From: Hyphomicrobiales bacterium
GTDB taxonomy: Bacteria; Pseudomonadota; Alphaproteobacteria; Rhizobiales; Beijerinckiaceae
Length of the DNA stretch: 64,000 nucleotides
Direction: 5' to 3'
Assembly: GCA_027484655.1 (NCBI GenBank)
Contig: JAIXSM010000002.1
Span: 18,249 to 82,248 of the forward strand
Part shown: one piece after another, positions 7,663 to 24,796 of the stretch
Layout: every line of letters begins with the position of its first letter
Numbering within the stretch: the first letter of the stretch is position 1
Made by a program: the position numbers and the translations under genes
The notes under the pieces: model-generated
Databases searched by the model: none
Told to the model about the DNA's origin: nothing
Seen by the model: the letters and a program-made list of their open reading frames with translations, nothing else

Positions 7663-8910
7663 ATGGCGGCGCCGGATCTGAAACCGCGACCTCGCGTGCT
7701 GAGCGTGTGGGGTCATCGCAACTTCACAATTTTTATGGTCGGGCTGACGCCTGCTGCGATCTCCTCCTGGATGCAGCGGGTGGGCGTCGGTTGGCTGACG
7801 TGGGAGTTGACCGGATCCACGGTCTGGCTTGGAATCATCGCAGCAGCTGATCTCGTGCCGATCCTTCTGCTGTCGCCGCTTGCGGGGGCTGTGACGGATC
7901 GCATGTCGTCGTTGCGCCTGATCCGCGTGACGCAATGGATGCAGTTCATCCACGCGGCTGCGCTGGCGGCGCTGACTTACGCCGGGCTCATGAGTGTGAC
8001 CCTGCTGCTTGCGCTCACCCTGGCGCTGGGCGTCGTCCACGCGTTCTCCACTGCGGCGCGCCATGCGTTTGTGCCGCTCACGGTGCCGCGCAGCGAGGTG
8101 CCGACCGCGGTCTCCCTTGACTCAGCGTTCTTTCAGGCGAGCCGGTTCATCGGCCCGGCCATCGCCGCGCTTGTCATCCCCGTGTGGGGCGTTTTTGGCG
8201 CGTTTCTCGCGCACGCCATCGGCACATTTGTGTTCGCGGGACTCATGCACATGATGACAGAGCCTTCAGGGGAGGCGCTGCGTCACCGGTCACGCAAGCT
8301 GCTCGGCGATGTGAAAGAAGCGTACAGCTACGTGCGTTCTCACGCGGGCATCTGGCCGCTCATGATTATGTTGGCGGCCGCATCGGTGTGCGTCCGGCCC
8401 TTGCAGGACATGCTGCCGGGTTTTGCTGGCGAGGTGTATGGCTCGGGCGCTTCAGGCCTTGCCTGGCTCACTTCAGCCATGGGCGTGGGCGCGATGGTCA
8501 GCGCCGCGTGGGTCGCGGTGCACGGGCGCACAAGCGGGCTCACCAACGTCTGTTTTATTGGCACGGCCCTGTCCAGCGTGTCGCTGATCGGACTTGTGGC
8601 GACCGACTGGTTTCCGCTCGGGCTGGCTTTCGCCGCGGTGTCTGGCTACGCGCTCAACAATCTCTCAACGAGCGTGCAGGCGCTTGTGCAAACCTCCGTC
8701 GAGGATCAACTGCGCGGGCGCGTGATGAGCCTTTACACGCTCATTTATCGCGGGCTGCCGGCCGCAGGCGCGCTGGTGTTTGGCGTCGCCGCCGAGTTCA
8801 TCGGCCTGCGCTGGACCTTCGCCCTGGCGGGCGTGGCCTGCTTCGTGGCGCTCGCAGCCCTAGCCTCCCAGCGCGCCGCGATGATCGCCTCGCTGGAGAG
8901 GCGCCACTGA
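7663..8910 (+). CDS. MFS transporter (EntS/H+ antiporter-like)
   Basis: About 12 hydrophobic segments, GAVTDRMS motif A, LRGRVMSLY. Confidence 0.9.
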   Translation: MAAPDLKPRPRVLSVWGHRNFTIFMVGLTPAAISSWMQRVGVGWLTWELTGSTVWLGIIAAADLVPILLLSPLAGAVTDRMSSLRLIRVTQWMQFIHAAALAALTYAGLMSVTLLLALTLALGVVHAFSTAARHAFVPLTVPRSEVPTAVSLDSAFFQASRFIGPAIAALVIPVWGVFGAFLAHAIGTFVFAGLMHMMTEPSGEALRHRSRKLLGDVKEAYSYVRSHAGIWPLMIMLAAASVCVRPLQDMLPGFAGEVYGSGASGLAWLTSAMGVGAMVSAAWVAVHGRTSGLTNVCFIGTALSSVSLIGLVATDWFPLGLAFAAVSGYALNNLSTSVQALVQTSVEDQLRGRVMSLYTLIYRGLPAAGALVFGVAAEFIGLRWTFALAGVACFVALAALASQRAAMIASLERRH

Positions 8911-8981
8911 GTTGACCCCACAGCGCGCGCGACTATCCTCGCGCCAACCGTGAACGCAGCCAAAGAGGGCGGAAACATCTC

Positions 8982-9614
8982 ATGAAACTCATCGGATACT
9001 TCAGAAGCGGCGCTTCTTATCGCGTGCGCATCGCGCTGAACCTCAAGGGGATCGGCGTCGAGCACGCGTTCAAGCACTTGCGCAAGGGCGAGCACAAGGA
9101 GTCCGACTACCTCGAGGTGAACCCGCAGGGCCTCGTGCCGACGCTGTTTACCGACGAAGGGCAGGCGCTCACCCAGTCCATCGCCATTCTCGAATGGCTG
9201 GAGGAGACCCACCCCGCGCCGGCCATGCTGCCGAAGGATCCCATCGCCCGGGCTCGCGTGCGCGCCTTCGCGCTGGCCATCGCGTGCGACGTGCATCCGG
9301 TGCAGAACCTTGGCGTCCTCAACAAGCTGAAGGCGTATGGCCTCGATGAGGCGAAGGCCAACCAGTGGGCGAAGGAGGTCAATTTCGACGGCCTCGCCGC
9401 CTGCGAAAGCCTGATCGCGAAAGAGCCGGGGCCGTTCTGCTTTGGCGACCAGCCGACGATGGCGGACATCTGCCTCGTGCCGCAGCTTGTGAACGCGCGG
9501 CGCTTCGGCGCTGACGTTTCAGCGTTCCCGCGGCTTCTGCAGGCTGAAGCGGCGTGCCTGGCCCACCCGGCGTTCGCCGCGGCGGCGCCGGAAAAGCAGC
9601 CGGACGCTGAGTAA
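8982..9614 (+). CDS. maiA: GST-zeta maleylacetoacetate/maleylpyruvate isomerase
   Basis: YFRSGASYRVRIALNLKG, NPQGLVP, LTQSIAILEWL, CDVHPVQN. Confidence 0.92.
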   Translation: MKLIGYFRSGASYRVRIALNLKGIGVEHAFKHLRKGEHKESDYLEVNPQGLVPTLFTDEGQALTQSIAILEWLEETHPAPAMLPKDPIARARVRAFALAIACDVHPVQNLGVLNKLKAYGLDEAKANQWAKEVNFDGLAACESLIAKEPGPFCFGDQPTMADICLVPQLVNARRFGADVSAFPRLLQAEAACLAHPAFAAAAPEKQPDAE

Positions 9615-9644
9615 CAAATTTTGCACAAAAAGTTTGCCGCGGCT

Positions 9645-9674
9645 CTTGCAGAAATTCGCGGCCGACATCAAATT
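9645..9674 (+). promoter_or_regulatory. Putative sigma70 promoter for an intergenic RNA
   Basis: CTTGCAG -35, 17-nt spacer, CAAATT -10; no credible coding gene downstream on this strand. Confidence 0.4.
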
Positions 9675-9680
9675 GAGATC

Positions 9681-9820
9681 AATCGGTCGCGGCGCGAGAG
9701 CCCCAGCCCCCCAATCGAGCGCAGCGACCGTCGCGCTTCGGATGTGTCGACCACGGATGTACTGGCGGCCGTTCATGCAAGCGCTGGGAAGCCTCGGGTG
9801 AAAGCCCCGGGGCTTTTTCC
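9681..9820 (+). ncRNA. Candidate small RNA (about 140 nt) with a C-rich loop
   Basis: Stem 9684-9695/9719-9730 enclosing GAGAGCCCCAGCCCCCCAATCGA; ends in a terminator hairpin. Confidence 0.4.
9789..9820 (+). terminator. Intrinsic terminator (possibly bidirectional)
   Basis: AAGCCTCGGG-TGAAAGC-CCCGGGGCTT followed by TTT..GTTTTT. Confidence 0.7.
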
Positions 9821-10335: not shown

Positions 10336-11516
10336 TTGTCCACGGACCAGCCGTAGAGCCATTCGATGGCGTCGTAGTAGTTCTGCGGGGTGCGGTCCTT
10401 CCACCACGCGTTGCGAATGAGGCGCTCCACGCCGTCCGCGTGGAAGATGCGTCCCATCTCGCGGGCGGAGAGCACCACGCGGCCCGTGCGCGGGATGCGC
10501 TTCGTCTCATACAGGCGGAACGCCTGCTCGATGTTGCGGTCGGTGACTTTCAGCGCCTCGCGCAGGGTCACTGCATCCTCCATGGCCATGCAGGCCCCTT
10601 GCGCCATGTACTGCAGCATGGGGTGGGCGGCGTCGCCGAGTAGCGTGTAGCGGCCTTCGCCCCACTTCAGCACCGGGTTGCGGTCGGCAATGGCCCAGCG
10701 CTTCCAGGAGGTGGGCTTGCGAATGAGCTGGCGCGGCTTGTCGGCGATGTGGGTGAAGTAGGACTCCACTTCCTCCTGTGAGCCTTCGCGCACGCCCCAC
10801 GTCTCCTTCTCGCGGCTGTGGAAGGTGACGACGATGTTGTACTGCTCGCCGCCGCGCAGGGGGTAGTGGACGATGTGACACTTCGGGCCCACCCAGATGG
10901 CGGCCGCATTCCAGCGCAGTTCTTCTGGAAAGTCATCGCGCGGGGTGACGGCGCGGTACACCACATGGCCGGGCACATGGGCGCCCCCATCCCCCAGCAT
11001 CTGCTTGCGGACAACCGAGTGCACGCCATCGGCGCCGATCATTGCAGCGCCTTCAAACACGCGGCCCTTCTCGTCCGTGACGCGCACGCCCGTGTCGCTC
11101 ACATCCATGGAGGAGATGCGCGTGGAGGTGTGAACGCGCACGTTCGGCTTGGTCTGCACCTCTTCGTAGATCGACTTGTGGATGTCCGCGCGGTGGATGA
11201 CCGCGTACGGGTTGCCGAAGCGCTGGCGGAATTCTTCACGGGCGGGGATGAGGCCGACCACCGACTCGTCGACTGCGTCCATCATGATGAGGTCGTCTGT
11301 GTAGACCGCGCGGGCGCGGGCGCGGGGGCCGCAGCCCAGCGCGTCCATGGCCGCAAACGCGTTCGGCCCCAACTGGATGCCGGCGCCGATCTCGCCGATC
11401 TCGGGCGCCTGCTCCAGCACCTCCACGTCGAAGCCGGCCTGATTGAGCGCCAGCGCACAGGCCATGCCGCCGATGCCGCCACCCACGACGACGATGGTGT
11501 TTTCCCTCGTGCTCAT
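10323..11516 (-). CDS. FAD-dependent monooxygenase, 3-hydroxybenzoate 6-monooxygenase-like
   Basis: VVGGGIGG, GAGIQLGPNA, FGNPYAVIHRADIH, GADG, LLGDAAHPMLQYMAQGACMA. Confidence 0.85.
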   Translation of the reverse strand: MSTRENTIVVVGGGIGGMACALALNQAGFDVEVLEQAPEIGEIGAGIQLGPNAFAAMDALGCGPRARARAVYTDDLIMMDAVDESVVGLIPAREEFRQRFGNPYAVIHRADIHKSIYEEVQTKPNVRVHTSTRISSMDVSDTGVRVTDEKGRVFEGAAMIGADGVHSVVRKQMLGDGGAHVPGHVVYRAVTPRDDFPEELRWNAAAIWVGPKCHIVHYPLRGGEQYNIVVTFHSREKETWGVREGSQEEVESYFTHIADKPRQLIRKPTSWKRWAIADRNPVLKWGEGRYTLLGDAAHPMLQYMAQGACMAMEDAVTLREALKVTDRNIEQAFRLYETKRIPRTGRVVLSAREMGRIFHADGVERLIRNAWWKDRTPQNYYDAIEWLYGWSVDKCLD

Positions 11517-11565
11517 CCTCGAATGCTCCTTCCCCGCGCCGTCGCGGCGGCGTCTGTCGAAAGTA

Positions 11566-11593
11566 AGCATACGTTTCGTATGTATGCTGTCAA
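11566..11593 (-). promoter_or_regulatory. Sigma70 promoter overlapped by a palindromic operator (probable MarR site)
   Basis: Minus strand TTGACA (11593-11588)-N16-TATGCT (11571-11566); palindrome AGCATAC-N9-GTATGCT at 11566-11588. Confidence 0.6.
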
Positions 11594-11635
11594 TCTTCTC
11601 CCACTGGACCGGCGCGCGACGCAGAGTGCTCGACT

Positions 11636-12499
11636 TTACAATGCCTTCGAGAGCGCCTGATCCAGTGCGCGCTTGATCTCGTCTTTGATGGGCTCGGCGG
11701 CGGCGAGGATTTCGGCGCCGTGAAAGAAATCCAGCACCCGGTAGCGATCCACCTGCGGGCGCAGCAGGAGGTCGGGGCGGGCGCCTTTCAGCATTTCCGC
11801 CGTGAGGGCGCTCTGCATGATCTGGGCGGTTCCGAACATCGCTTCAAACGCGGAGGGCGCGGCCTTCGTCTGGGGGGCGGGGCCGCCGGTCACGTCGCAG
11901 GCGATGACGAAATCGCCGCTGCCCATCAGGCTGCGGTAGGGCAGGGGATCGGTGGCGCCCCCGTCCAGCAGGACGCTGCCATCGATCTCGATCGACTTGA
12001 ACAGGCCGGGTATGGCCATGGACGCAGCCACCGCGGGGGCCAGCGGCCCCGTCTGGAACCGGCGCGCCCTGCGTGCGTAGTAGTCCGTCGATACGGCGGT
12101 GAAAGGAACCGCCAGATCCTCGAATCTGTCCGGCACGGCCTGCGGCCAGAAGAAATCGAGGATGCGCTCGCCGTCGAGCAGGATCGGATTTTGCAGCCCT
12201 CCGGCGAACAGGCCCGTGAGCCGCCCCACCCGGGCCTGGAAGATGCGCGCCATCACCTCAGCGCGGTTGCGCAGCAGCCGTTGCAGGTGGGCGCGCATGT
12301 CTTTGGCGCACACGCCCGCAGCCCACGCCGCGCCCACCACGGCGCCCATGGAGGCGCCCGCGATGGCGCTTGGCCGCACGCCAAGCTCGTCCAGCGCCTC
12401 GATCACGAGGATATGCGCGATGCCTCGCGCGCCGCCGGCGCCCAGAGCCACGGCCACGCCGCGCGTCCGCACATGCTCGCTGTTTGCAGGTTCCATCAT
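11636..12499 (-). CDS. Patatin-like phospholipase (RssA/NTE family)
   Basis: LGAGGARGIAH, GASMG nucleophile elbow, AASMAIPG, DGG. Confidence 0.92.
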   Translation of the reverse strand: MMEPANSEHVRTRGVAVALGAGGARGIAHILVIEALDELGVRPSAIAGASMGAVVGAAWAAGVCAKDMRAHLQRLLRNRAEVMARIFQARVGRLTGLFAGGLQNPILLDGERILDFFWPQAVPDRFEDLAVPFTAVSTDYYARRARRFQTGPLAPAVAASMAIPGLFKSIEIDGSVLLDGGATDPLPYRSLMGSGDFVIACDVTGGPAPQTKAAPSAFEAMFGTAQIMQSALTAEMLKGARPDLLLRPQVDRYRVLDFFHGAEILAAAEPIKDEIKRALDQALSKAL

Positions 12500-12518
12500 G
12501 TTTTCGCCGGGCCTCGCG

Positions 12519-13412
12519 TCACAGAAAGGCCGACAGGGCCGAGAGCGTGGCGTCCGGGTTCTCCTCGGCGAGGAAGTGGCCCGCGTCAATCTCCTCGCCC
12601 TCCGCATGGGGCGCGAAGGTCGAGCGCCACACCTCCAGCGCCGGGCGCTTGCCACGGGTGAGGAAGAACCCGCCGGAGAGGATGAGCGTGGGGCAGGGCA
12701 GCGTCGCTCCCGCCTTCAGATCCGCCTCATCCGCGGCTCTGTCCAGCGTGGCGCCGGCGCGATAGTCCTCGCAGAACGCATGGATGCGCGTCGAGTCGCG
12801 CCAGGCGTCGCGGTAGGCTGCAAGGGCGCGCTTGTCGAAACCGCGCAACTGATCGTCCTTGGCCCAATTGCGCATGAGATCGCCGAAGTAGGCGTCTGGC
12901 CCAAGTCGCGCGATCTCGTTCTCCGGCTCCGGCGCAGGGCGCGCGAGGAACGCCCAGTGGGCTGCAGGGATGTCTCCCGCCTCAATGCTACGCCAGACCT
13001 CGCTTGTGGGCAGAATGTCGAGCAGCGCAAGTTTCTCCACGCGGCCGGGCTGATCGAGCGCGAGTCGATAGCCCACGCGGGCGCCGCGATCATGCCCGAC
13101 CACGCGAAAACGCACGTGCCCCAGTCGCTCCATCACCTGCACCACGTCGGCCGCCATGGCCCGCTTGGCGTAGAGCGCGCCCGCTTCGCTGCGCGGCGCC
13201 GACGACCAGCCGTAGCCGCGCAGGTCCATCGCCACCACAAAGAAACGCTGCGCGAGCTTTGGCGCGATGCGGCCCCACATCAGATGCGTCTGCGGGAAGC
13301 CATGGAGGAGGACAAGGGGCTCTCCCGCGCCTGCGCTGCGGGCGAAAATGCGCCCGCCGTCCGTGTCGATCCAGTGGGCCTCAAAGCCTGCGAACATTTC
13401 GGCGGTGGTCAT
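12519..13412 (-). CDS. Alpha/beta hydrolase, fluoroacetate (haloacetate) dehalogenase-like
   Basis: LLHGFPQT, GHDRGARV, LDILPT, HWAFLA, CEDYRAGA, GHFLAEE. Confidence 0.85.
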   Translation of the reverse strand: MTTAEMFAGFEAHWIDTDGGRIFARSAGAGEPLVLLHGFPQTHLMWGRIAPKLAQRFFVVAMDLRGYGWSSAPRSEAGALYAKRAMAADVVQVMERLGHVRFRVVGHDRGARVGYRLALDQPGRVEKLALLDILPTSEVWRSIEAGDIPAAHWAFLARPAPEPENEIARLGPDAYFGDLMRNWAKDDQLRGFDKRALAAYRDAWRDSTRIHAFCEDYRAGATLDRAADEADLKAGATLPCPTLILSGGFFLTRGKRPALEVWRSTFAPHAEGEEIDAGHFLAEENPDATLSALSAFL

Positions 13413-13604
13413 CGTGCGGCCTCGCGTTCGGTCAACTTCGTAGATGGACACGCGGGCTTCGTCTGGCAATGCGCGCCGCAAGCTCTAGCTATCGTAACGG
13501 CTCGCGCGCTCGTGAACGCGCAGGGGCTGGCGCATCCGCCCAGCCTCGGCTCAATTGTCGCCCGCAACCCGCAATCGGGCGCATCGAAGGAAGGCACACT
13601 CGTG

Positions 13605-14579
13605 ATGATTACACGCAGGAACGCTCTTGTTATGGCTTCGGCTGCGGCGGCTTTGCCGGCAGTGTCCGCTGCGCCCGCCTTCGCCAACACCCCGCCCGCC
13701 CGCACTGGCGCGCAAGCGCCCGGATGGTTCCGCTCCAAGGTGGGCGACTATGAGATCACCGCCATCAGCGACGGCTTCGTGCAGCGTCCGCTTGAAGGAT
13801 TTGTGCGGAACGTTGAGGTTGCAGAGGTTCAGAAAACGCTTGCGGCGCAGGGCCTTCCCGGCACTCACATCCGCGTTCCCTACACCACGCTTGTCGTGAA
13901 CACCGGCTCGCAGGTCATCTTGCTGGATTCCGGCAACGGCGACTTCGCGCCGGGCGCGAACTCCGGCCAGTGGATGGCGAACTTCCGCGCCGCCGGCTTC
14001 ACGCCGGAGATGGTGAACAAGGTGATCCTCAGCCATTTCCACGGCGATCACATCAACGGCGTGCGCAACAAGGCCGGCCAGCTCGTATTCCCCAACGCCG
14101 AGCTGATGGCGCCGGAGGCCGAATGGGCCTTCTGGATGGACGACGCGCGCATGAACAACGCGCCCGACGCCATGAAGCCCGCGTTCCAGAACGTGCGTCG
14201 CGTGTTCGGCCCGAGCGCCGACAAGGTGACGCGCTATGGTTGGGACAAGGAAGTGGCGCCGGGCGTCACCAGCGTGCGCGCAGACGGGCACTCGCCGGGC
14301 CACACGGTGTTTGTGATCGCGTCGGGCGCCGGCCGCATGATGTTCATGGCTGACATCACCAACACTCCGGTTCTGTTCGCGCGTCATCCCGAGTGGCAGG
14401 TGCTGTTTGATATGGATGCGCAGAAGGCCATCGAGACGCGCAAGCGCCTGCTCGACATGGTCTCCGCGGACCGCATCCGCAGCGCGTTCTATCACGGGCC
14501 GTTCCCGGCGGTGGGGCAGGTGTCGCGCGATGGCGGCGGCTATCGCCTCGACATGCTGCCCTGGCAGGACGCACTTTAA
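13605..14579 (+). CDS. Tat-exported metallo-beta-lactamase-fold hydrolase (OPHC2/methyl-parathion-hydrolase-like subgroup)
   Basis: ITRRNAL Tat motif, LLDSG, SHFHGDHING, GHSPGH; real start inside the long ORF-track ORF. Confidence 0.88.
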   Translation: MITRRNALVMASAAAALPAVSAAPAFANTPPARTGAQAPGWFRSKVGDYEITAISDGFVQRPLEGFVRNVEVAEVQKTLAAQGLPGTHIRVPYTTLVVNTGSQVILLDSGNGDFAPGANSGQWMANFRAAGFTPEMVNKVILSHFHGDHINGVRNKAGQLVFPNAELMAPEAEWAFWMDDARMNNAPDAMKPAFQNVRRVFGPSADKVTRYGWDKEVAPGVTSVRADGHSPGHTVFVIASGAGRMMFMADITNTPVLFARHPEWQVLFDMDAQKAIETRKRLLDMVSADRIRSAFYHGPFPAVGQVSRDGGGYRLDMLPWQDAL

Positions 14580-20384: not shown

Positions 20385-20825
20385 TCACACGCCGGCGAGG
20401 CGCTGAATGGCGGCCGCGTCCATCACGCCGGAGCGTCGCTCGGCCTCGCGCCCGTCCCGAAACACGATGAGCGTGGGAATACTGCGGATTCCATAACGCG
20501 CTGCGAGGTTCGGCAGGGCCTCGGTGTCCACCTTGAGAAACCGCGCCCGGGGCTCCCCCGCGCGTGCCGCCACCGCGAACTGGGGCGCCATCGCCCGGCA
20601 GGGGCCGCACCATTCAGCCCAGAAATCGACGACGACGGGAATCTGGGAACGGCTGACATGGCGGTCGAAATCCGCCTCGTTCTCCACCTCAATCGCGACG
20701 CCGGAAAACGGCTTGCCCCCGCATTTGCCGCACGCGGGCTTCTCCCCCGCCGCAAGGCGCGCCGCCGGCGCGCGGTTTACGGCGCCGCACTCGGGGCAGA
20801 CGAAGGTGAGACTGGCGTCGTTCAT
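20385..20825 (-). CDS. trxC: Thioredoxin 2 with N-terminal zinc finger
   Basis: CPEC...CGKC zinc finger and WCGPC active site. Confidence 0.92.
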   Translation of the reverse strand: MNDASLTFVCPECGAVNRAPAARLAAGEKPACGKCGGKPFSGVAIEVENEADFDRHVSRSQIPVVVDFWAEWCGPCRAMAPQFAVAARAGEPRARFLKVDTEALPNLAARYGIRSIPTLIVFRDGREAERRSGVMDAAAIQRLAGV

Positions 20826-20952
20826 GGCCCTGCGGTGGATGCATTGCGAACCCGACAGATTCTGCCGTCCGGCGGCGCGGGAATCAAGCGCCGGCCGCCA
20901 CGCGGGTTCGCCTGCTGTGGAAGCCGCCGACGCATCGCCCGGAAAGTTAAAA

Positions 20953-20983
20953 GCCATGCTTACAAGCAGATAGAAAGCATGGC
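20953..20983. promoter_or_regulatory. Inverted repeat abutting the RBS of the barrel gene (possible operator)
   Basis: GCCATGCTT-N13-AAGCATGGC immediately before AGGAGG. Confidence 0.35.
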
Positions 20984-20994
20984 AGGAGGAGGGC

Positions 20995-21915
20995 TTGGAT
21001 CTTGGGAATCATCCGGTGCGTGCGCTAAGGTCAACATGCTCCAGCCTCGCTATCGCTGTCGCGATCGCCTGTCACGTCAGCCTGGCGGTTGCGGATGAGC
21101 CGGCGCCGGGCGGCGGGCAGGGCGTGCGCCCCCGCACGAGCGTCACATTCGAAGCGATGCCGCTGTTTGTGCGCAATGATCCGGCGCTTCGGTTTGATTC
21201 GGCGGACTCAAAGCTCGGTAACCTTGGCGCTCTTCAGCAGGGAGATCGCGGATTGCAGGGCCGGGTATCCCTGACGCACGCCTTCGACGAGGCATGGGAC
21301 ACGCGCATCTCCGCGTCCATGCTCTACGCCGGCGAGGACGAGAAGGCCGCGCCCTACCTGTCCAGCAGCAATGTATCCACGGCGCGGCAGAGCGCGCGGG
21401 CCATCGTTCTCGACGGTGAAGTCGGGCATCGCTTCAAGCCGGTAGAGGTGCTCGACGTGCGTCTTTTCGCCGGCTTCAGGGCCCTTCGAGCGACCGCTGA
21501 AGGCCACTGGGCGACGTCGGCGAGTGATAAACTCGGCAGCTTCTTCGACACGACCCATGCGCTTGGCCCTCGTGTCGGGGCCGACGTGACCATTCCCGTG
21601 AGTTCACGGATCGACCTCCTCGCCTCGGGATCGGTCTCAGCGCTGAATGGCCATTCGCGCAGCCACTACACGCTCGGCAACGTACGCACTCGCGACAACA
21701 GATGGATCATGGGCGCCGACGCCATGGCCGGCGTCGCGCTTCATCTGGGCGACGGCGCCAGTCTGACTGCGGGCTACCGCGTGGAGCACTGGAGGAACCT
21801 GGCGGCCCTTCACACCGGAATCTCCTATGTCGGAGCTTACGAGACGCGCTGGGGAACGCCCACGCTGTCGCACGGGCCCGTCTTGCGCTTCACCGTGCCC
21901 CTCGGCGGACGTTGA
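20995..21915 (+). CDS. Putative outer-membrane beta-barrel protein (Lpg1974-like)
   Basis: TTG start after AGGAGG; signal-peptide-like N-terminus; alternating amphipathic strands (GPRVGAD, LTAGYRVEHW, HGPVLRFTVPLG). Confidence 0.6.
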   Translation: MDLGNHPVRALRSTCSSLAIAVAIACHVSLAVADEPAPGGGQGVRPRTSVTFEAMPLFVRNDPALRFDSADSKLGNLGALQQGDRGLQGRVSLTHAFDEAWDTRISASMLYAGEDEKAAPYLSSSNVSTARQSARAIVLDGEVGHRFKPVEVLDVRLFAGFRALRATAEGHWATSASDKLGSFFDTTHALGPRVGADVTIPVSSRIDLLASGSVSALNGHSRSHYTLGNVRTRDNRWIMGADAMAGVALHLGDGASLTAGYRVEHWRNLAALHTGISYVGAYETRWGTPTLSHGPVLRFTVPLGGR

Positions 21916-22342
21916 GCACGTTCGCCTTGCGCACGACCCCATCTTGGTTTTCCCTGCGAAAGTAGATCCGGCGGCCGGGGGCCAGATTGCGTGCGGCTGC
22001 AATTAATGCGCTTGTTCCTTTGGTGCTGAGGCTCGAGAGGATCGTCAGGGCTAAGGCCTCCGCATGTTGGCGAGGGGCGATGTCAAGTGGCCCCTCATTC
22101 GCCATCCACGCCTGCGCAATCCGATGCGTGACGGGAACCCAGCCAAGGTATCCGGCGAGGCGGCCGTCCGAGATCAGGCACAGGTGGTTTCGCTCAGACA
22201 ACTGGTGCTGAACCGCCGCCACCAGGGTGGCCGCAGGGAACTCCGAAAATGGTTTGCTGCGGGTCAGAAAAGTCAGCACCAACCCGAGAGTTTCCATCGA
22301 CGCGACAAGGTGGCGGGTATCCGGGGATATACTCTGGCTCAC
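21890..22342 (-). CDS. HlyC-like (RTX toxin-activating lysine acyltransferase fold) protein
   Basis: GTG start at 22342 after AAGGA; METLGLVLTFLTRSKPFSEFP...AGYLGW is colinear with HlyC EVLGHVSWLWASSPLHRNWP...VAYCSW. Confidence 0.65.
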   Translation of the reverse strand: MSQSISPDTRHLVASMETLGLVLTFLTRSKPFSEFPAATLVAAVQHQLSERNHLCLISDGRLAGYLGWVPVTHRIAQAWMANEGPLDIAPRQHAEALALTILSSLSTKGTSALIAAARNLAPGRRIYFRRENQDGVVRKANVLNVRRGAR

Positions 22343-22587
22343 TGGCTTGATCCTTGAAGCCTCGCTTCTGCGGCAGTCTTTATGACCATGCCGTCGTTGA
22401 ACCAAGCGTAACAATGACAGCGTTGCAGACATCTTCAACCCGATGCTTGCGTCGGCTCGGCGCCGCTTCCGGGGCCTCTTCAGCCCCGCGCACGGTATCT
22501 CAAAAAGGGTGACCGCCTCATCCCTTTGTGGCAGGTCAATGACGGCAAGAGATCTGTACAATAAAAGTTCGCGGAGACGGCTGGTTT

Positions 22588-23331
22588 ATGCGTATCGCCT
22601 TTCTTTCGGACATTCACGGTAACCGGGAGGCTCTCGACGCCTGCATCGCTCATGCGGAGCGCCATGGGGTCGATCAGTTCGTCGTGCTGGGGGATCTGGT
22701 GGGGTACGGCGCGGACCCCGCCTATGTGGTGGATCGCGTGCGCGAGCTTGAGGCCCGCGGCGGGATCGTCATCAAGGGCAACCACGACGCTGCGGCGTCC
22801 GCCGGCGTCTCGGCGGGCATGAACGAGCATGCGAGCAAGGCCATCACGTGGACCTATGACGAACTCGACGACGATGCGCGCGATTTCCTGCGGGCGCTGC
22901 CCATGAGGGTCGAGGACGAGGAACGCCTCTATGTCCATTCCGAAGCCGCGGCGCCTTCCGAGTGGCGCTACGTGACGGACGCCTCCAGCGCCGAGCGCTC
23001 GCTGCGCGCCGCCTCGCAGCGGCTCACGTTCTGCGGCCACATTCATGTGCCGCAGCTTTATCACATGGCGCCCCAGAAGCCTGCGGTCGGCTTCAAGCCC
23101 CAGAACAACTCTCCGATTCCGCTGGTCGCCAGCCGCAAGTGGCTGATGGTGCAAGGCGCCGTCGGGCAGCCGCGCGATCAGAATCCCGCCGCCGCCTACG
23201 GTCTTCTCGATGCGAAGCGCAACGAGATGACCTACATGCGCGTGCCCTACGACATCGAGCGGGCCGCGCGGAAAATCCATGCGGCCGGCCTGCCGCAGAT
23301 CCTCGCCGCAAGGCTCTATATCGGACGATGA
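22588..23331 (+). CDS. Metallophosphoesterase (calcineurin-like, YfcE/PrpA-type)
   Basis: SDIHGN, LGDLVGYG, KGNHD, FCGHIH, GAVGQPRD. Confidence 0.93.
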   Translation: MRIAFLSDIHGNREALDACIAHAERHGVDQFVVLGDLVGYGADPAYVVDRVRELEARGGIVIKGNHDAAASAGVSAGMNEHASKAITWTYDELDDDARDFLRALPMRVEDEERLYVHSEAAAPSEWRYVTDASSAERSLRAASQRLTFCGHIHVPQLYHMAPQKPAVGFKPQNNSPIPLVASRKWLMVQGAVGQPRDQNPAAAYGLLDAKRNEMTYMRVPYDIERAARKIHAAGLPQILAARLYIGR

Positions 23332-23335
23332 TTGC

Positions 23336-24796
23336 ATGAACAGGATGGAAGTCATCGTCGGCGAAACCATCGACGGGTTTCTGATCGAGGAGCGCCTTCA
23401 CGTCGGCGGCATGGCGATCATCTTCCGGGCTTCGCACCCTGATGTGGATGGGCCCGTCCTCTTCAAGGTGCCGAAGATCGAGGACGGCGACGATCCCACC
23501 GTCATCGTCGGCTTTGAAATGGAGATGATGATTCTCCCGCGCCTGTCGGGCGTGCATGTGCCCAAACTTTACGCCGTGGGCGATTACGCGCGCAGGCCCT
23601 ACATCGCCATGGAGTTCGTGAAGGGCGAGACGCTCTACCCAACCTTTGAGAAGTCGCCGCTGCCGCCCATGGATGTCGCCGCCATCGGCGCCAAGGTGGC
23701 CACCGCGCTCGTGGACCTGCACCGGCAGAAGGTGATCCACCACGACATCAAGCCGTCCAACATCGTGATCCGCGAGACGGGCGAAGCCTGCCTCATCGAC
23801 TTCGGGCTCTCCCGGCATCTGGGAATGCCAGACTTGCTGGAGGCGGAGTTTCGCCTGCCCATGGGCACGGCGCCGTACATCTCGCCGGAGCAGATACGCC
23901 AGTACCGTTCTGATCCGCGTTCGGACATCTTCTCGCTGGGCGTCCTGCTCTATCACCTCGCCACCGGCGAACGGCCGTTCGGGTTGCCGCGCTCCCAGCA
24001 AGCGTTGAAGACGCGGCTGTGGCGCGATCCCGTGCCGCCGCGCAAGATCCGGCCGGACGTGCCGCCGTGGCTTCAGGAAATCGTGCTGCGCTGCCTCGAG
24101 GTTGACCCCACCAAGCGCTACCAGACGCCGGCTCGCCTCGCCTTCGCGCTGAAGAACCCCGATGCGGTGCTTCTCACGGCGCGCGCTGAAAAGATGAAGC
24201 GCGATCCTCTGCCTACGGCGTTTCGTCGCTGGCTTCGCGCGCGCGCGCTGCCCCCGCCCGAGCCCTCGCCATATGTCGCAGACGCAGGCTCCATCGTGGT
24301 GGTCGCGGTCGATCTTCAGGAGGGGTTCGAATACCTCGCCGAGGCGTTGCGCATCCAGACCCAGCGGGCGCTCTCCTCCGCCGGCGACGTACGTCTGGCC
24401 TGCATCAACGTGCTGAAGCTCAGCGCCGTGTTCGTGAACGATCCCTTCGACGCGGAAGGCCGCAACATCCACGTGCAGCGCCTCGTCGAACTGAAGGACT
24501 GGGCGCGCCCGTTCGGCATGGCGACGGAGAAGATCAGCTTCCATGTGCTCGAACACATGGATCCCGCCGAAGCCATTCTGGAATTTGCGGAAAAGAATTA
24601 TGCGGACCAGATCCTCATGGGCGCCCGCGGCTCGTCGAACATGCGCCGCTTCCTCGGCAGCGTGTCGTCCCAGGTGGCGGCGCGGGCGCCATGCACGGTG
24701 ACGCTGGTGCGCGCCCAGGCGCCAAGCGCGGCGAAACAGGAAACAGCCGACGTTGCAGGTGAGCCTGGCGCCGGCGTCGCCGCTGTAGCGGAATAG
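23336..24796 (+). CDS. Hanks-type Ser/Thr protein kinase fused to a C-terminal universal stress protein domain
   Basis: GGMA, LFKVP, HHDIKPSN, DFG, GTAPYISPEQ, SDIFSLG; USP motifs VVAVD and ILMGARG...LGSVSSQVA..APCTVTLV. Confidence 0.92.
   Translation: MNRMEVIVGETIDGFLIEERLHVGGMAIIFRASHPDVDGPVLFKVPKIEDGDDPTVIVGFEMEMMILPRLSGVHVPKLYAVGDYARRPYIAMEFVKGETLYPTFEKSPLPPMDVAAIGAKVATALVDLHRQKVIHHDIKPSNIVIRETGEACLIDFGLSRHLGMPDLLEAEFRLPMGTAPYISPEQIRQYRSDPRSDIFSLGVLLYHLATGERPFGLPRSQQALKTRLWRDPVPPRKIRPDVPPWLQEIVLRCLEVDPTKRYQTPARLAFALKNPDAVLLTARAEKMKRDPLPTAFRRWLRARALPPPEPSPYVADAGSIVVVAVDLQEGFEYLAEALRIQTQRALSSAGDVRLACINVLKLSAVFVNDPFDAEGRNIHVQRLVELKDWARPFGMATEKISFHVLEHMDPAEAILEFAEKNYADQILMGARGSSNMRRFLGSVSSQVAARAPCTVTLVRAQAPSAAKQETADVAGEPGAGVAAVAE

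Follow-up and report, generated by a model that had tools for sequence, protein, structure and literature searches.

What might a HlyC-like protein do if it has neither of the residues on which its enzymatic relatives depend, nor a toxin gene beside it? This question is raised by a short gene at positions 21890-22342 (minus strand) of a 64,000-nt stretch of contig JAIXSM010000002.1, from a Hyphomicrobiales bacterium of the Beijerinckiaceae; this whole stretch is referred to below as the window. The gene encodes a conserved, folded protein of 150 aa from a family that is sister to the toxin-activating acyltransferases (TAATs) of the HlyC/ApxC/CyaC/CdiC type, with a fold like that of the GCN5-related N-acetyltransferases (GNATs). 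The sister family is called dyad-less here after the TAAT catalytic pair that it lacks, and in the window its member is encoded next to a β-barrel outer-membrane protein.

The gene and its product

The gene and its ribosome-binding site are located as follows:

21890..22342, minus strand: dyad-less TAAT/HlyC-like gene (coding sequence 21893-22342, stop codon 21890-21892, GTG start at 22342; from the open reading frame (ORF) and its translation)
22351..22355, minus strand: Shine-Dalgarno-like AAGGA, 8 nt upstream of the GTG start (read from the sequence)

The reading frame 21893-22342 (-) encodes 150 aa, as do the genes of two close homologues (96% and 74% identity) retrieved by a word-index search; that search gave these two relatives only, and the rest of the family came from an exhaustive HMMER search. 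The GTG start at 22342 is supported because family members conserve residues 8-14, which precede an alternative ATG at 22297 and make up the first β-strand in the AlphaFold2 (AF2) model described below. On the strength of the ORF, the equal length of the homologues and these conserved residues, we keep the gene boundaries given by the first-pass annotation. A promoter and terminator scan of 20900-22700 returned zero σ70-like promoters and zero terminator-like sites. The database sources that name the 150-aa protein label it 'hypothetical protein'.

A remote relationship to HlyC

Searches with the single sequence did not place the protein in any family. None of the three readings of the frame (135, 150 and 223 aa) matched Pfam or NCBIfam, even at E≤10, the protein lies below the gathering score of the Pfam HlyC model (PF02794, 25 bits), and that model has no match in the genome to which the window belongs (3.59 Mb, 100% complete). 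Searching PDB sequences with a three-sequence profile found nothing, and a 91-sequence profile gave chance-level matches only (E 0.6-1).

The comparison of profiles is more informative. The family alignment (A2) comprises 91 rows, namely the window protein, its two close homologues and 88 of the 150 HMMER matches listed; these 88 are about 130-172 aa long, fragments and longer or fused forms being omitted, as were a few of normal length by oversight. The reference alignment (A4) comprises 18 canonical alphaproteobacterial HlyC-family proteins, from which two atypical sequences (L038, L039) and one tandem protein (L029) were dropped, and it matches ApxC (PDB ID: 4WHN) with an E-value of 5e-33. 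Aligned with hhalign, A2 and A4 are related with a probability of 95.7% (E 8.9e-9) over 121 columns, so that the colinearity with HlyC noticed in the first-pass annotation is borne out, over a stretch longer than the roughly 70 aa given there. When the A2 members were scanned singly, HlyC was the only Pfam family to recur, with 12 of the 91 matching it at E≤1 and a best E-value of 2.6e-8. Three longer relatives (P0090, P0129 and P0119) exceed the Pfam HlyC cut-off, as do, in a genome search, family members in G326, G414, G049 and G236 (31.2, 27.1, 27.0 and 25.5 bits, respectively).

The predicted structure points in the same direction. A first AF2 model built on a three-sequence alignment was unusable (predicted local distance difference test, pLDDT, 44.7) and was superseded by one based on A2, which is confident throughout (pLDDT 92.2, predicted TM-score 0.86). 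Foldseek places ApxC 4WHN at the top of the matches to this model (E 1.6e-6, TM 0.66), with ordinary GNATs next. VIA-align also ranks 4WHN first (Z 13.5, root-mean-square deviation 3.8, 134 residues aligned), followed by GNAT-like loading or decarboxylase domains (Z 12.5-11.4) and by ordinary GNATs (Z about 11). Hundreds of GNAT chains match the model in a test for the superfamily fold, 547 of 999 being aligned at Z≥8. The fold alone does not separate ApxC from the GNAT-like domains (a Z difference of 1); the sequence profile does.

In GNATs, the pyrophosphate of coenzyme A (CoA) is bound by a loop at the start of helix α3. Positions 105-110 of the protein, compared with the motif of this loop, are variable across the family and hold no conserved Gly. 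This motif may be inapplicable to TAAT-like proteins, because TAATs take acyl chains from acyl carrier protein (ACP) rather than from CoA (PMC3034196).

As a lead only, the ESM Atlas places the protein nearest to clusters in which HlyC annotates 11-42% of the members. Among the three nearest clusters, one (score 0.96, with HlyC on 42% of its members) is 56% viral (Uroviricota), and viral proteins make up 86% of another near cluster, which has 1117 members. It may be that phages commonly encode HlyC-like proteins.

The HlyC likeness of the window protein is real but remote. The first-pass annotation had pointed to a Pfam HlyC search and to the ApxC structure as the places to look for it: the former found no match, and the likeness appears in the profile alignment and in the rank of 4WHN among known folds.

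Replacement of the catalytic dyad

TAATs possess a catalytic His/Asp dyad, of which ApxC His24, HlyC His23 and CdiC His37/Asp107 are examples (PMC8510554), and Ser20 and His23 are functional residues of HlyC (PMC3034196). According to the direct-attack model, the target lysine loses its proton to the Asp, and the ACP thiolate gains one from the His (PMC8510554). With an offset of 11 to the chain numbering of 4WHN, the ApxC residues concerned are His 24, Asp 93 and, in the 'AIRVD' segment, Arg 121.

In the hhalign alignment of A2 and A4, S29-K30-P31-F32 of the window protein falls on the TAAT S-x-x-H, with F32 in the His column, and L99-T100-I101-L102-S103-S104-L105-S106 falls on I-I-D-F-V-A-P-F, with I101 in the Asp column. 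W68 falls on the TAAT Trp (invariant in A4, 17/18 in a MAFFT alignment) and R130 on the Arg of 'AIRVD', which we take to be functionally important in ApxC.

The substitutions extend to the whole family. Position 32 is Phe in 86 and Tyr in 5 of the 91 A2 rows and is never His, while position 101 is Ile (41), Val (27), Thr (12) or, in the remainder, another non-acidic residue; the preceding position 100 is Thr in 75 rows and Glu in one. Position 29, the equivalent of HlyC Ser20, is variable across the 91 rows, and the APFG stretch that follows the Asp strand is not retained. Other positions are strongly conserved (n=91): Q47 in 89 rows, Y65 in 89, G67 in 91, W68 in 82, W79 in 85 and R130 in 91, with Arg (73) or Lys (12) at position 118. 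Q47, Y65 and G67 are conserved in the dyad-less family only.

The same picture emerges when 21 family and 18 TAAT rows are aligned independently with MAFFT L-INS-i. The TAAT His column (18/18) holds Phe (18) or Tyr (3) in the family, the Asp column (D14/E4 in TAATs) holds mostly Ala, Thr, Ile or Val (19/21, the remaining two residues not being printed), and the Trp column is common to both groups. Taken together, the alignments indicate that the His/Asp dyad is replaced throughout the family by Phe/Tyr and by an aliphatic residue or Thr, respectively, with the Trp and the Arg kept. The first-pass annotation had read the change from S-P-L-H in HlyC to S-K-P-F, and the loss of the catalytic-Asp segment to LTILSSLS, from the window sequence; both readings hold in both alignments. 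Of the SxPF whose conservation it had left for comparison with homologues, the last position is Phe/Tyr in 91/91, the substitution being family-wide, and the Ser position is variable.

Family size, distribution and phylogeny

The exhaustive HMMER search found 195 representative clusters (50% identity) at E≤1e-3, 99 of them at E≤1e-10. Distribution was counted in samples of genomes, so that absence elsewhere means not found in the genomes searched. The family occurs in 2 of 41 genomes of relatives including the window's own, which is the only one among 24 genomes of the same genus; in 11 of 401 genomes of a class sample (E≤1e-3); in 15 of 401 genomes of an order sample (E≤1e-10); and in 4 of 401 genomes of a phylum sample, all four belonging to the window's order. 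The dyad-less family is sparse in the sampled genomes.

In a tree of 39 rows (the window protein, 20 homologue loci and 18 TAATs; L088 and loci fetched later were left out), TAATs (support 100/100) are split from the dyad-less family (100/100) by long branches. The window protein belongs to a subclade with L075, L076, L014 and L077 (98/91). The divergent branch proposed in the first-pass annotation is supported, and the 195 clusters, the full-length members and the invariant G67 and R130 show it to be conserved rather than decaying.

Some proteins depart from the simple architecture. L029 (G181:C354) is a 342-aa frame with two tandem TAAT domains, the first with His and D-x-x-A-P-F-G and the second without His, and representative P0101 (366 aa) likewise contains two matched stretches. 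In P0151 (361 aa), an N-terminal array of tetratricopeptide repeats (TPRs) is fused to a C-terminal HlyC-like domain; these TPRs weakly match the TPR model of Slam, the surface lipoprotein assembly modifier (E 0.012).

RTX genes beside the wider family

TAATs are encoded next to their protein substrates, which are repeats-in-toxin (RTX) protoxins or CdiA, and next to secretion genes. Flanks of up to ±8 kb were inspected around 21 homologue loci, an RTX-like ORF being one with at least three matches to a nonapeptide regular expression. The flanks of 11 of the 21 loci contain such an ORF; at 9 loci the distance is no more than 400 bp, and the strand is mostly that of the HlyC-like gene. Of 20 control regions taken from these genomes, 3 contain one (Fisher p 0.02, to be read with the reservation that related genomes are not independent), and one of these three positive controls shares an RTX-rich contig with a target locus. 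Pfam HemolysinCabind was confirmed in all three neighbours tested, proteins of 1298 aa (with a serralysin domain), 1430 aa and 473 aa. Two further neighbours were missed by the regular expression, namely a Big_9/cadherin protein with a sub-threshold RTX match at L017 and a cadherin-repeat protein cut by the contig end at L084.

A later search (A5) added two genome and three metagenome loci, two of them too short for context. In metagenome locus L093 a 1565-aa RTX protein, ORFs of 591 and 437 aa (neither Pfam-scanned) and the HlyC-like gene lie in this order on one strand, and at L090 a small RTX-like ORF lies 1.3 kb upstream of the HlyC-like gene; the flank of L089 contains no RTX-like ORF. 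Members of the dyad-less family are the only PF02794 matches in G414 and G236, which have no canonical HlyC match, and there the dyad-less form occupies the place of a TAAT.

The window is different. None of its ORFs matches the RTX regular expression, and the contig from which it comes (C17) has no Pfam HemolysinCabind, HlyD_3, OEP or ABC_membrane match, as the first-pass annotation had maintained for RTX and type I secretion genes in the window. Elsewhere in the same genome, RTX-repeat proteins are encoded on C78 (about 109.8-115.8 kb) and C60 (about 26-27 kb), in frames of 1013 and 795 aa; the C78 gene is followed by matches to ATP-binding cassette (ABC) transporter and HlyD families and resembles a type I secretion locus.

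A β-barrel partner in the window's subclade

The HlyC-like gene of the window instead meets, tail to tail, a gene for an outer-membrane protein:

20995..21915, plus strand: β-barrel outer-membrane protein gene, Legionella_OMP-like (Pfam PF05150, 31.7 bits against a cut-off of 25.4)
21890..21915, no strand: 26-nt overlap of the 3' ends of the convergent barrel and HlyC-like genes (from the coordinates)

The product of 20995-21915 has 306 aa and a signal-peptide-like N-terminus. A tblastn search with this barrel against 26 family loci matched five, namely L089 (1e-15), L077, L075, L076 and L014, which are exactly the members of the window's subclade plus L089. The barrel gene adjoins the HlyC-like gene in four of the five and lies about 3 kb off in L077; none of the members of the window's subclade has an RTX gene adjoining the HlyC-like gene. 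The six barrels align over their full length at 22-30% identity and share the motifs R-x-F-A-G-x-R, G-P-R-x-G and G-Y-R-x-E-x-W, and the L089 barrel is also above the Pfam Legionella_OMP cut-off.

The arrangement of the pair varies, and a cytochrome P450 often accompanies it. L089 repeats the situation in the window, with a convergent pair (20-nt 3' overlap) between fmt and def. In L075 the barrel gene is divergent from a gene (7932-9797, plus strand) in which an N-terminal HlyC-like domain is fused to a C-terminal P450, an architecture shared by P0029 (621 and 594 aa, respectively). In L076 the genes for the barrel, the P450 and the HlyC-like protein share a strand and follow each other in this order, the latter two being 9 bp apart. 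L014 has barrel, HlyC-like and family 2 glycosyltransferase (GT2) genes on one strand, a divergent PP-binding carrier gene and a sub-threshold P450-like ORF, and in L077 the barrel gene is divergent from that of a P450, with an α/β-hydrolase and the HlyC-like gene 3 kb off and HlyD and ABC genes upstream. No P450 gene is found near the HlyC-like gene in the window or in L089; the window genome has three P450 genes, all on other contigs. Downstream of the L076 operon by 2.8 kb, in a low-GC stretch (0.49), a 1037-aa protein (11270-14383, plus strand) combines SIR2-like, STAND NTPase and TPR regions, an architecture resembling that of defence systems.

A profile built from the six linked barrels (A6) finds a barrel case outside its training set, L088 (G496:C1, about 7800-8230, minus strand), where the N-terminal half of a HlyC-like gene (5-80 of the profile) continues, in another frame, as the C-terminal quarter of a barrel gene (238-317); this looks like a decayed deletion remnant of a barrel/HlyC-like pair. 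A6 has a single match in the window genome, none in 20 control regions and none in any of the 10 genomes with the RTX-type subclade. Among 41 relatives, strong matches occur only in G000 and G024, both sources of the profile, and in G040. That the barrel is a common porin lying nearby by chance was considered and rejected, since it is single-copy in the genome and was not found in any of the 10 RTX-subclade genomes or the 20 controls. Weak A6 matches (E about 1e-6) were also seen in G018 (C15:25325-25657) and G014 (C8:5500-5895), about 4 kb from the phosphoesterase-kinase pair described below, and these may be distant barrels in a similar neighbourhood.

The term 'orphan', applied to the gene in the first-pass annotation, has to be given up, as a barrel gene adjoins it in the window and recurs in its closest relatives, and RTX genes are neighbours in about half of the wider family. 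Of the neighbours that had been suggested for homologues, RTX proteins or barrels, the former belong to the wider family (9/21 within 400 bp) and the latter to the window's subclade.

A two-gene cassette

The barrel and HlyC-like genes together fill a discrete interval:

20809..22522, no strand: species-specific segment with the barrel and HlyC-like genes, between a conserved thioredoxin gene and a metallophosphoesterase-kinase pair

When 20385-24796 was compared with 30 genomes of the same genus, DNA similarity was confined to the flanks and did not include the barrel or the HlyC-like gene. The metallophosphoesterase-kinase pair and the thioredoxin gene are about 1.95 kb apart in these genomes; in G007, G022, G001 and G008 this interval is occupied by unrelated DNA, in which tblastn finds neither protein. 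In G007 it contains a 446-aa ORF whose sequence looks like that of a ferric reductase. GC content is 0.56-0.63 over the HlyC-like gene and its upstream spacer versus 0.65-0.70 in the flanks. The barrel and HlyC-like genes form a two-gene cassette that was acquired as a unit.

Next to the cassette, the metallophosphoesterase gene (22588-23331, plus strand) overlaps the start of the kinase gene (23279-24796, plus strand), whose product is a Ser/Thr protein kinase with a C-terminal universal-stress-protein domain. This pair is conserved at the DNA level in most of the 30 genomes.

Comparison with known systems

With HlyC, ApxC and CyaC (PF02794; 4WHN) the window protein shares the GNAT-like TAAT fold, 121 colinear profile columns, a length of about 150 aa, an initial L-G-x-V motif, the TAAT Trp (W68) and the Arg (R130), and about half of its family lies beside RTX-repeat genes, as these TAATs do. 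It differs in that the dyad-less family has no catalytic His, Asp or APFG and forms a separate 100/100 clade on a long branch, and in that the window protein itself is undetected by the Pfam model and has a β-barrel as its neighbour, without RTX or type I secretion genes.

CdiC provides a precedent for a TAAT whose substrate is no longer an RTX toxin but another exported protein, encoded adjacently, to which it transfers a hydroxylated acyl chain; unlike the dyad-less proteins, CdiC keeps and needs His37/Asp107, and its substrate is the filamentous two-partner-secretion effector CdiA rather than a barrel (PMC8510554). The second-best structures, the CurA GNAT-L (2REF), SxtA (7UCI) and GphF (6MFC) domains (Z 12.5-11.4), are likewise carrier-protein-linked GNAT folds, with chemistry departing from simple N-acetyl transfer. 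These are, however, domains of large synthases, and no sequence relationship between them and the window protein was detected.

Judged by these comparisons, the window protein is a member of a TAAT-related, dyad-less sister family with a new partner in its subclade, and not a member of PF02794, where we do not file it because it falls below the Pfam threshold and has neither the His nor the Asp. A literature search found no description of a dyad-less HlyC-like family among its results, which were RTX reviews and off-topic titles only and did not cover the ApxC structure paper.

What the protein might do

Most likely, the protein would still handle acyl-ACP and act on the product of its neighbour, here the barrel precursor, because every characterised relative uses acyl-ACP to acylate a lysine of an exported protein encoded adjacently (PMC3034196, PMC8510554). 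That it does so as a dyad-independent acyltransferase acting on the barrel is the form of this reading that we favour, tentatively and with somewhat less than even confidence. Such an enzyme would bind acyl-ACP in the cytoplasm, as its TAAT relatives do, and its target would be the exported protein encoded next door, which for the window's subclade would be the barrel precursor. The acyl chain would pass to a nucleophile of that precursor by direct attack, the dyad not being needed; the ACP thiol could take its proton from Y65 or from bulk solvent, R130 could hold the acyl donor and, in relatives, the linked or fused P450 could modify the acyl chain. The TAAT CdiC does lipidate a non-RTX, Sec-exported protein, and ApxC H24A and overproduced CdiC H37A retain residual activity (PMC8510554). 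This residual activity, the seemingly rebuilt polar residues and the TAAT-like position beside RTX genes would all speak for an active enzyme.

Several observations weigh against transfer to the barrel. Both TAAT catalytic residues are absent from every member, which could mean that there is no transferase activity, the CdiC H37A and D107A alleles being null-like at native expression (PMC8510554), and any replacement acid/base pair in the groove is putative only. The six barrels contain no invariant Lys, the best candidate being that of a D-x-K-L-G stretch, present in five of the six. G040 encodes a distant barrel (91.5 bits) with no HlyC-like gene or remnant within 9 kb, and A6 was built from linked barrels, so that L088 and the negative results are its only independent evidence. 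The P450, α/β-hydrolase, GT2 and carrier neighbours would fit a small-molecule lipid pathway equally well. Prediction of a complex between the 150-aa protein and the barrel scored 0.00, which counts neither for nor against binding.

Rather less probable, and yet a serious alternative, is a non-catalytic pseudo-enzyme or adaptor that has kept the TAAT fold and a groove for acyl-ACP or substrate and transfers nothing. Some P450 enzymes act on acyl-ACP, and such a protein might present acyl-ACP to the linked or fused P450, or else hold an unfolded partner (an RTX protein or the barrel precursor) before secretion. The replacement of the dyad in 91/91 rows, the variable Ser20 column and the lost APFG stretch are as this alternative would have them; fusion to a P450 is what would be expected of a substrate-delivery domain, and the conserved, surface-type R115, R118 and R130 would suit ACP docking. 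Conversely, the family takes the place of canonical TAATs next to RTX genes, its members being alone in matching PF02794 in G414 and G236, which is easier to explain by retained modification, the new and near-invariant polar Q47 and Y65 suggest a rebuilt active site, and neither the window nor L089 has a P450 near the gene.

GNAT-type N-acyl amino acid synthases and ornithine-lipid synthases acylate small molecules. That the window's subclade similarly transfers the chain of acyl-ACP to the N or O of a small amine or a lipid head group, with the P450, hydrolase and glycosyltransferase tailoring the lipid and the barrel serving as its outer-membrane channel or receptor, seems to us unlikely. 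The neighbours in relatives do resemble a biosynthetic cluster (P450, PP-binding carrier, GT2, α/β-hydrolases, ABC, HlyD), and the structures ranking below ApxC are polyketide GNAT-like domains (CurA, SxtA and GphF, Z 11.4-12.5). Nevertheless, of these partners only the barrel is kept throughout the subclade, and in the window and in L089 the pair was inserted without further genes between housekeeping genes unrelated to it. The sister subclade has its links with RTX proteins and not with biosynthetic genes, and the nearest relatives in both sequence and structure are protein lysine acyltransferases.

Finally, that the gene is a decaying or functionless TAAT relic left after loss of an RTX partner, as the missing dyad, the absence of an RTX gene from the window, the patchy occurrence (1/24 same-genus genomes) and the broken remnant at L088 might suggest, is highly improbable given an intact frame with a good ribosome-binding site, 96% and 74% homologues of the same length, 195 clusters with invariant positions, a confident fold, and the same substitutions throughout the family, including members in operons with RTX genes.

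The favoured reading, acylation of the barrel without the dyad, has a more far-reaching version, which we regard as unlikely: the dyad-less branch as a whole might be an active and mechanistically new class of protein-lipidating enzymes, of which the window's subclade would acylate the barrel before export, with an acyl chain hydroxylated by the P450 in some species, and the RTX-linked subclade would do the same to RTX exoproteins of the rhizobial type.

Significance

TAATs are the textbook case of bacterial lysine fatty-acylation, with a mechanism defined by the His/Asp dyad. Here, a whole conserved sister family without the dyad is still found beside RTX genes or, in the lineage of the window, with a dedicated barrel and a P450. 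If its members are active, acyl transfer from ACP to protein would be possible on a different catalytic set-up and its substrates would extend to outer-membrane barrels; if barrel acylation in particular is true, outer-membrane proteins would undergo a kind of lipidation not known before. If they are inactive, the family would represent a pseudo-enzyme of wide occurrence, with a role in handling acyl-ACP or secretion substrates. The barrel/HlyC-like pair consists of two genes only and is therefore directly testable, and either outcome bears on how environmental and plant-associated Alphaproteobacteria mature their RTX exoproteins and envelope proteins.

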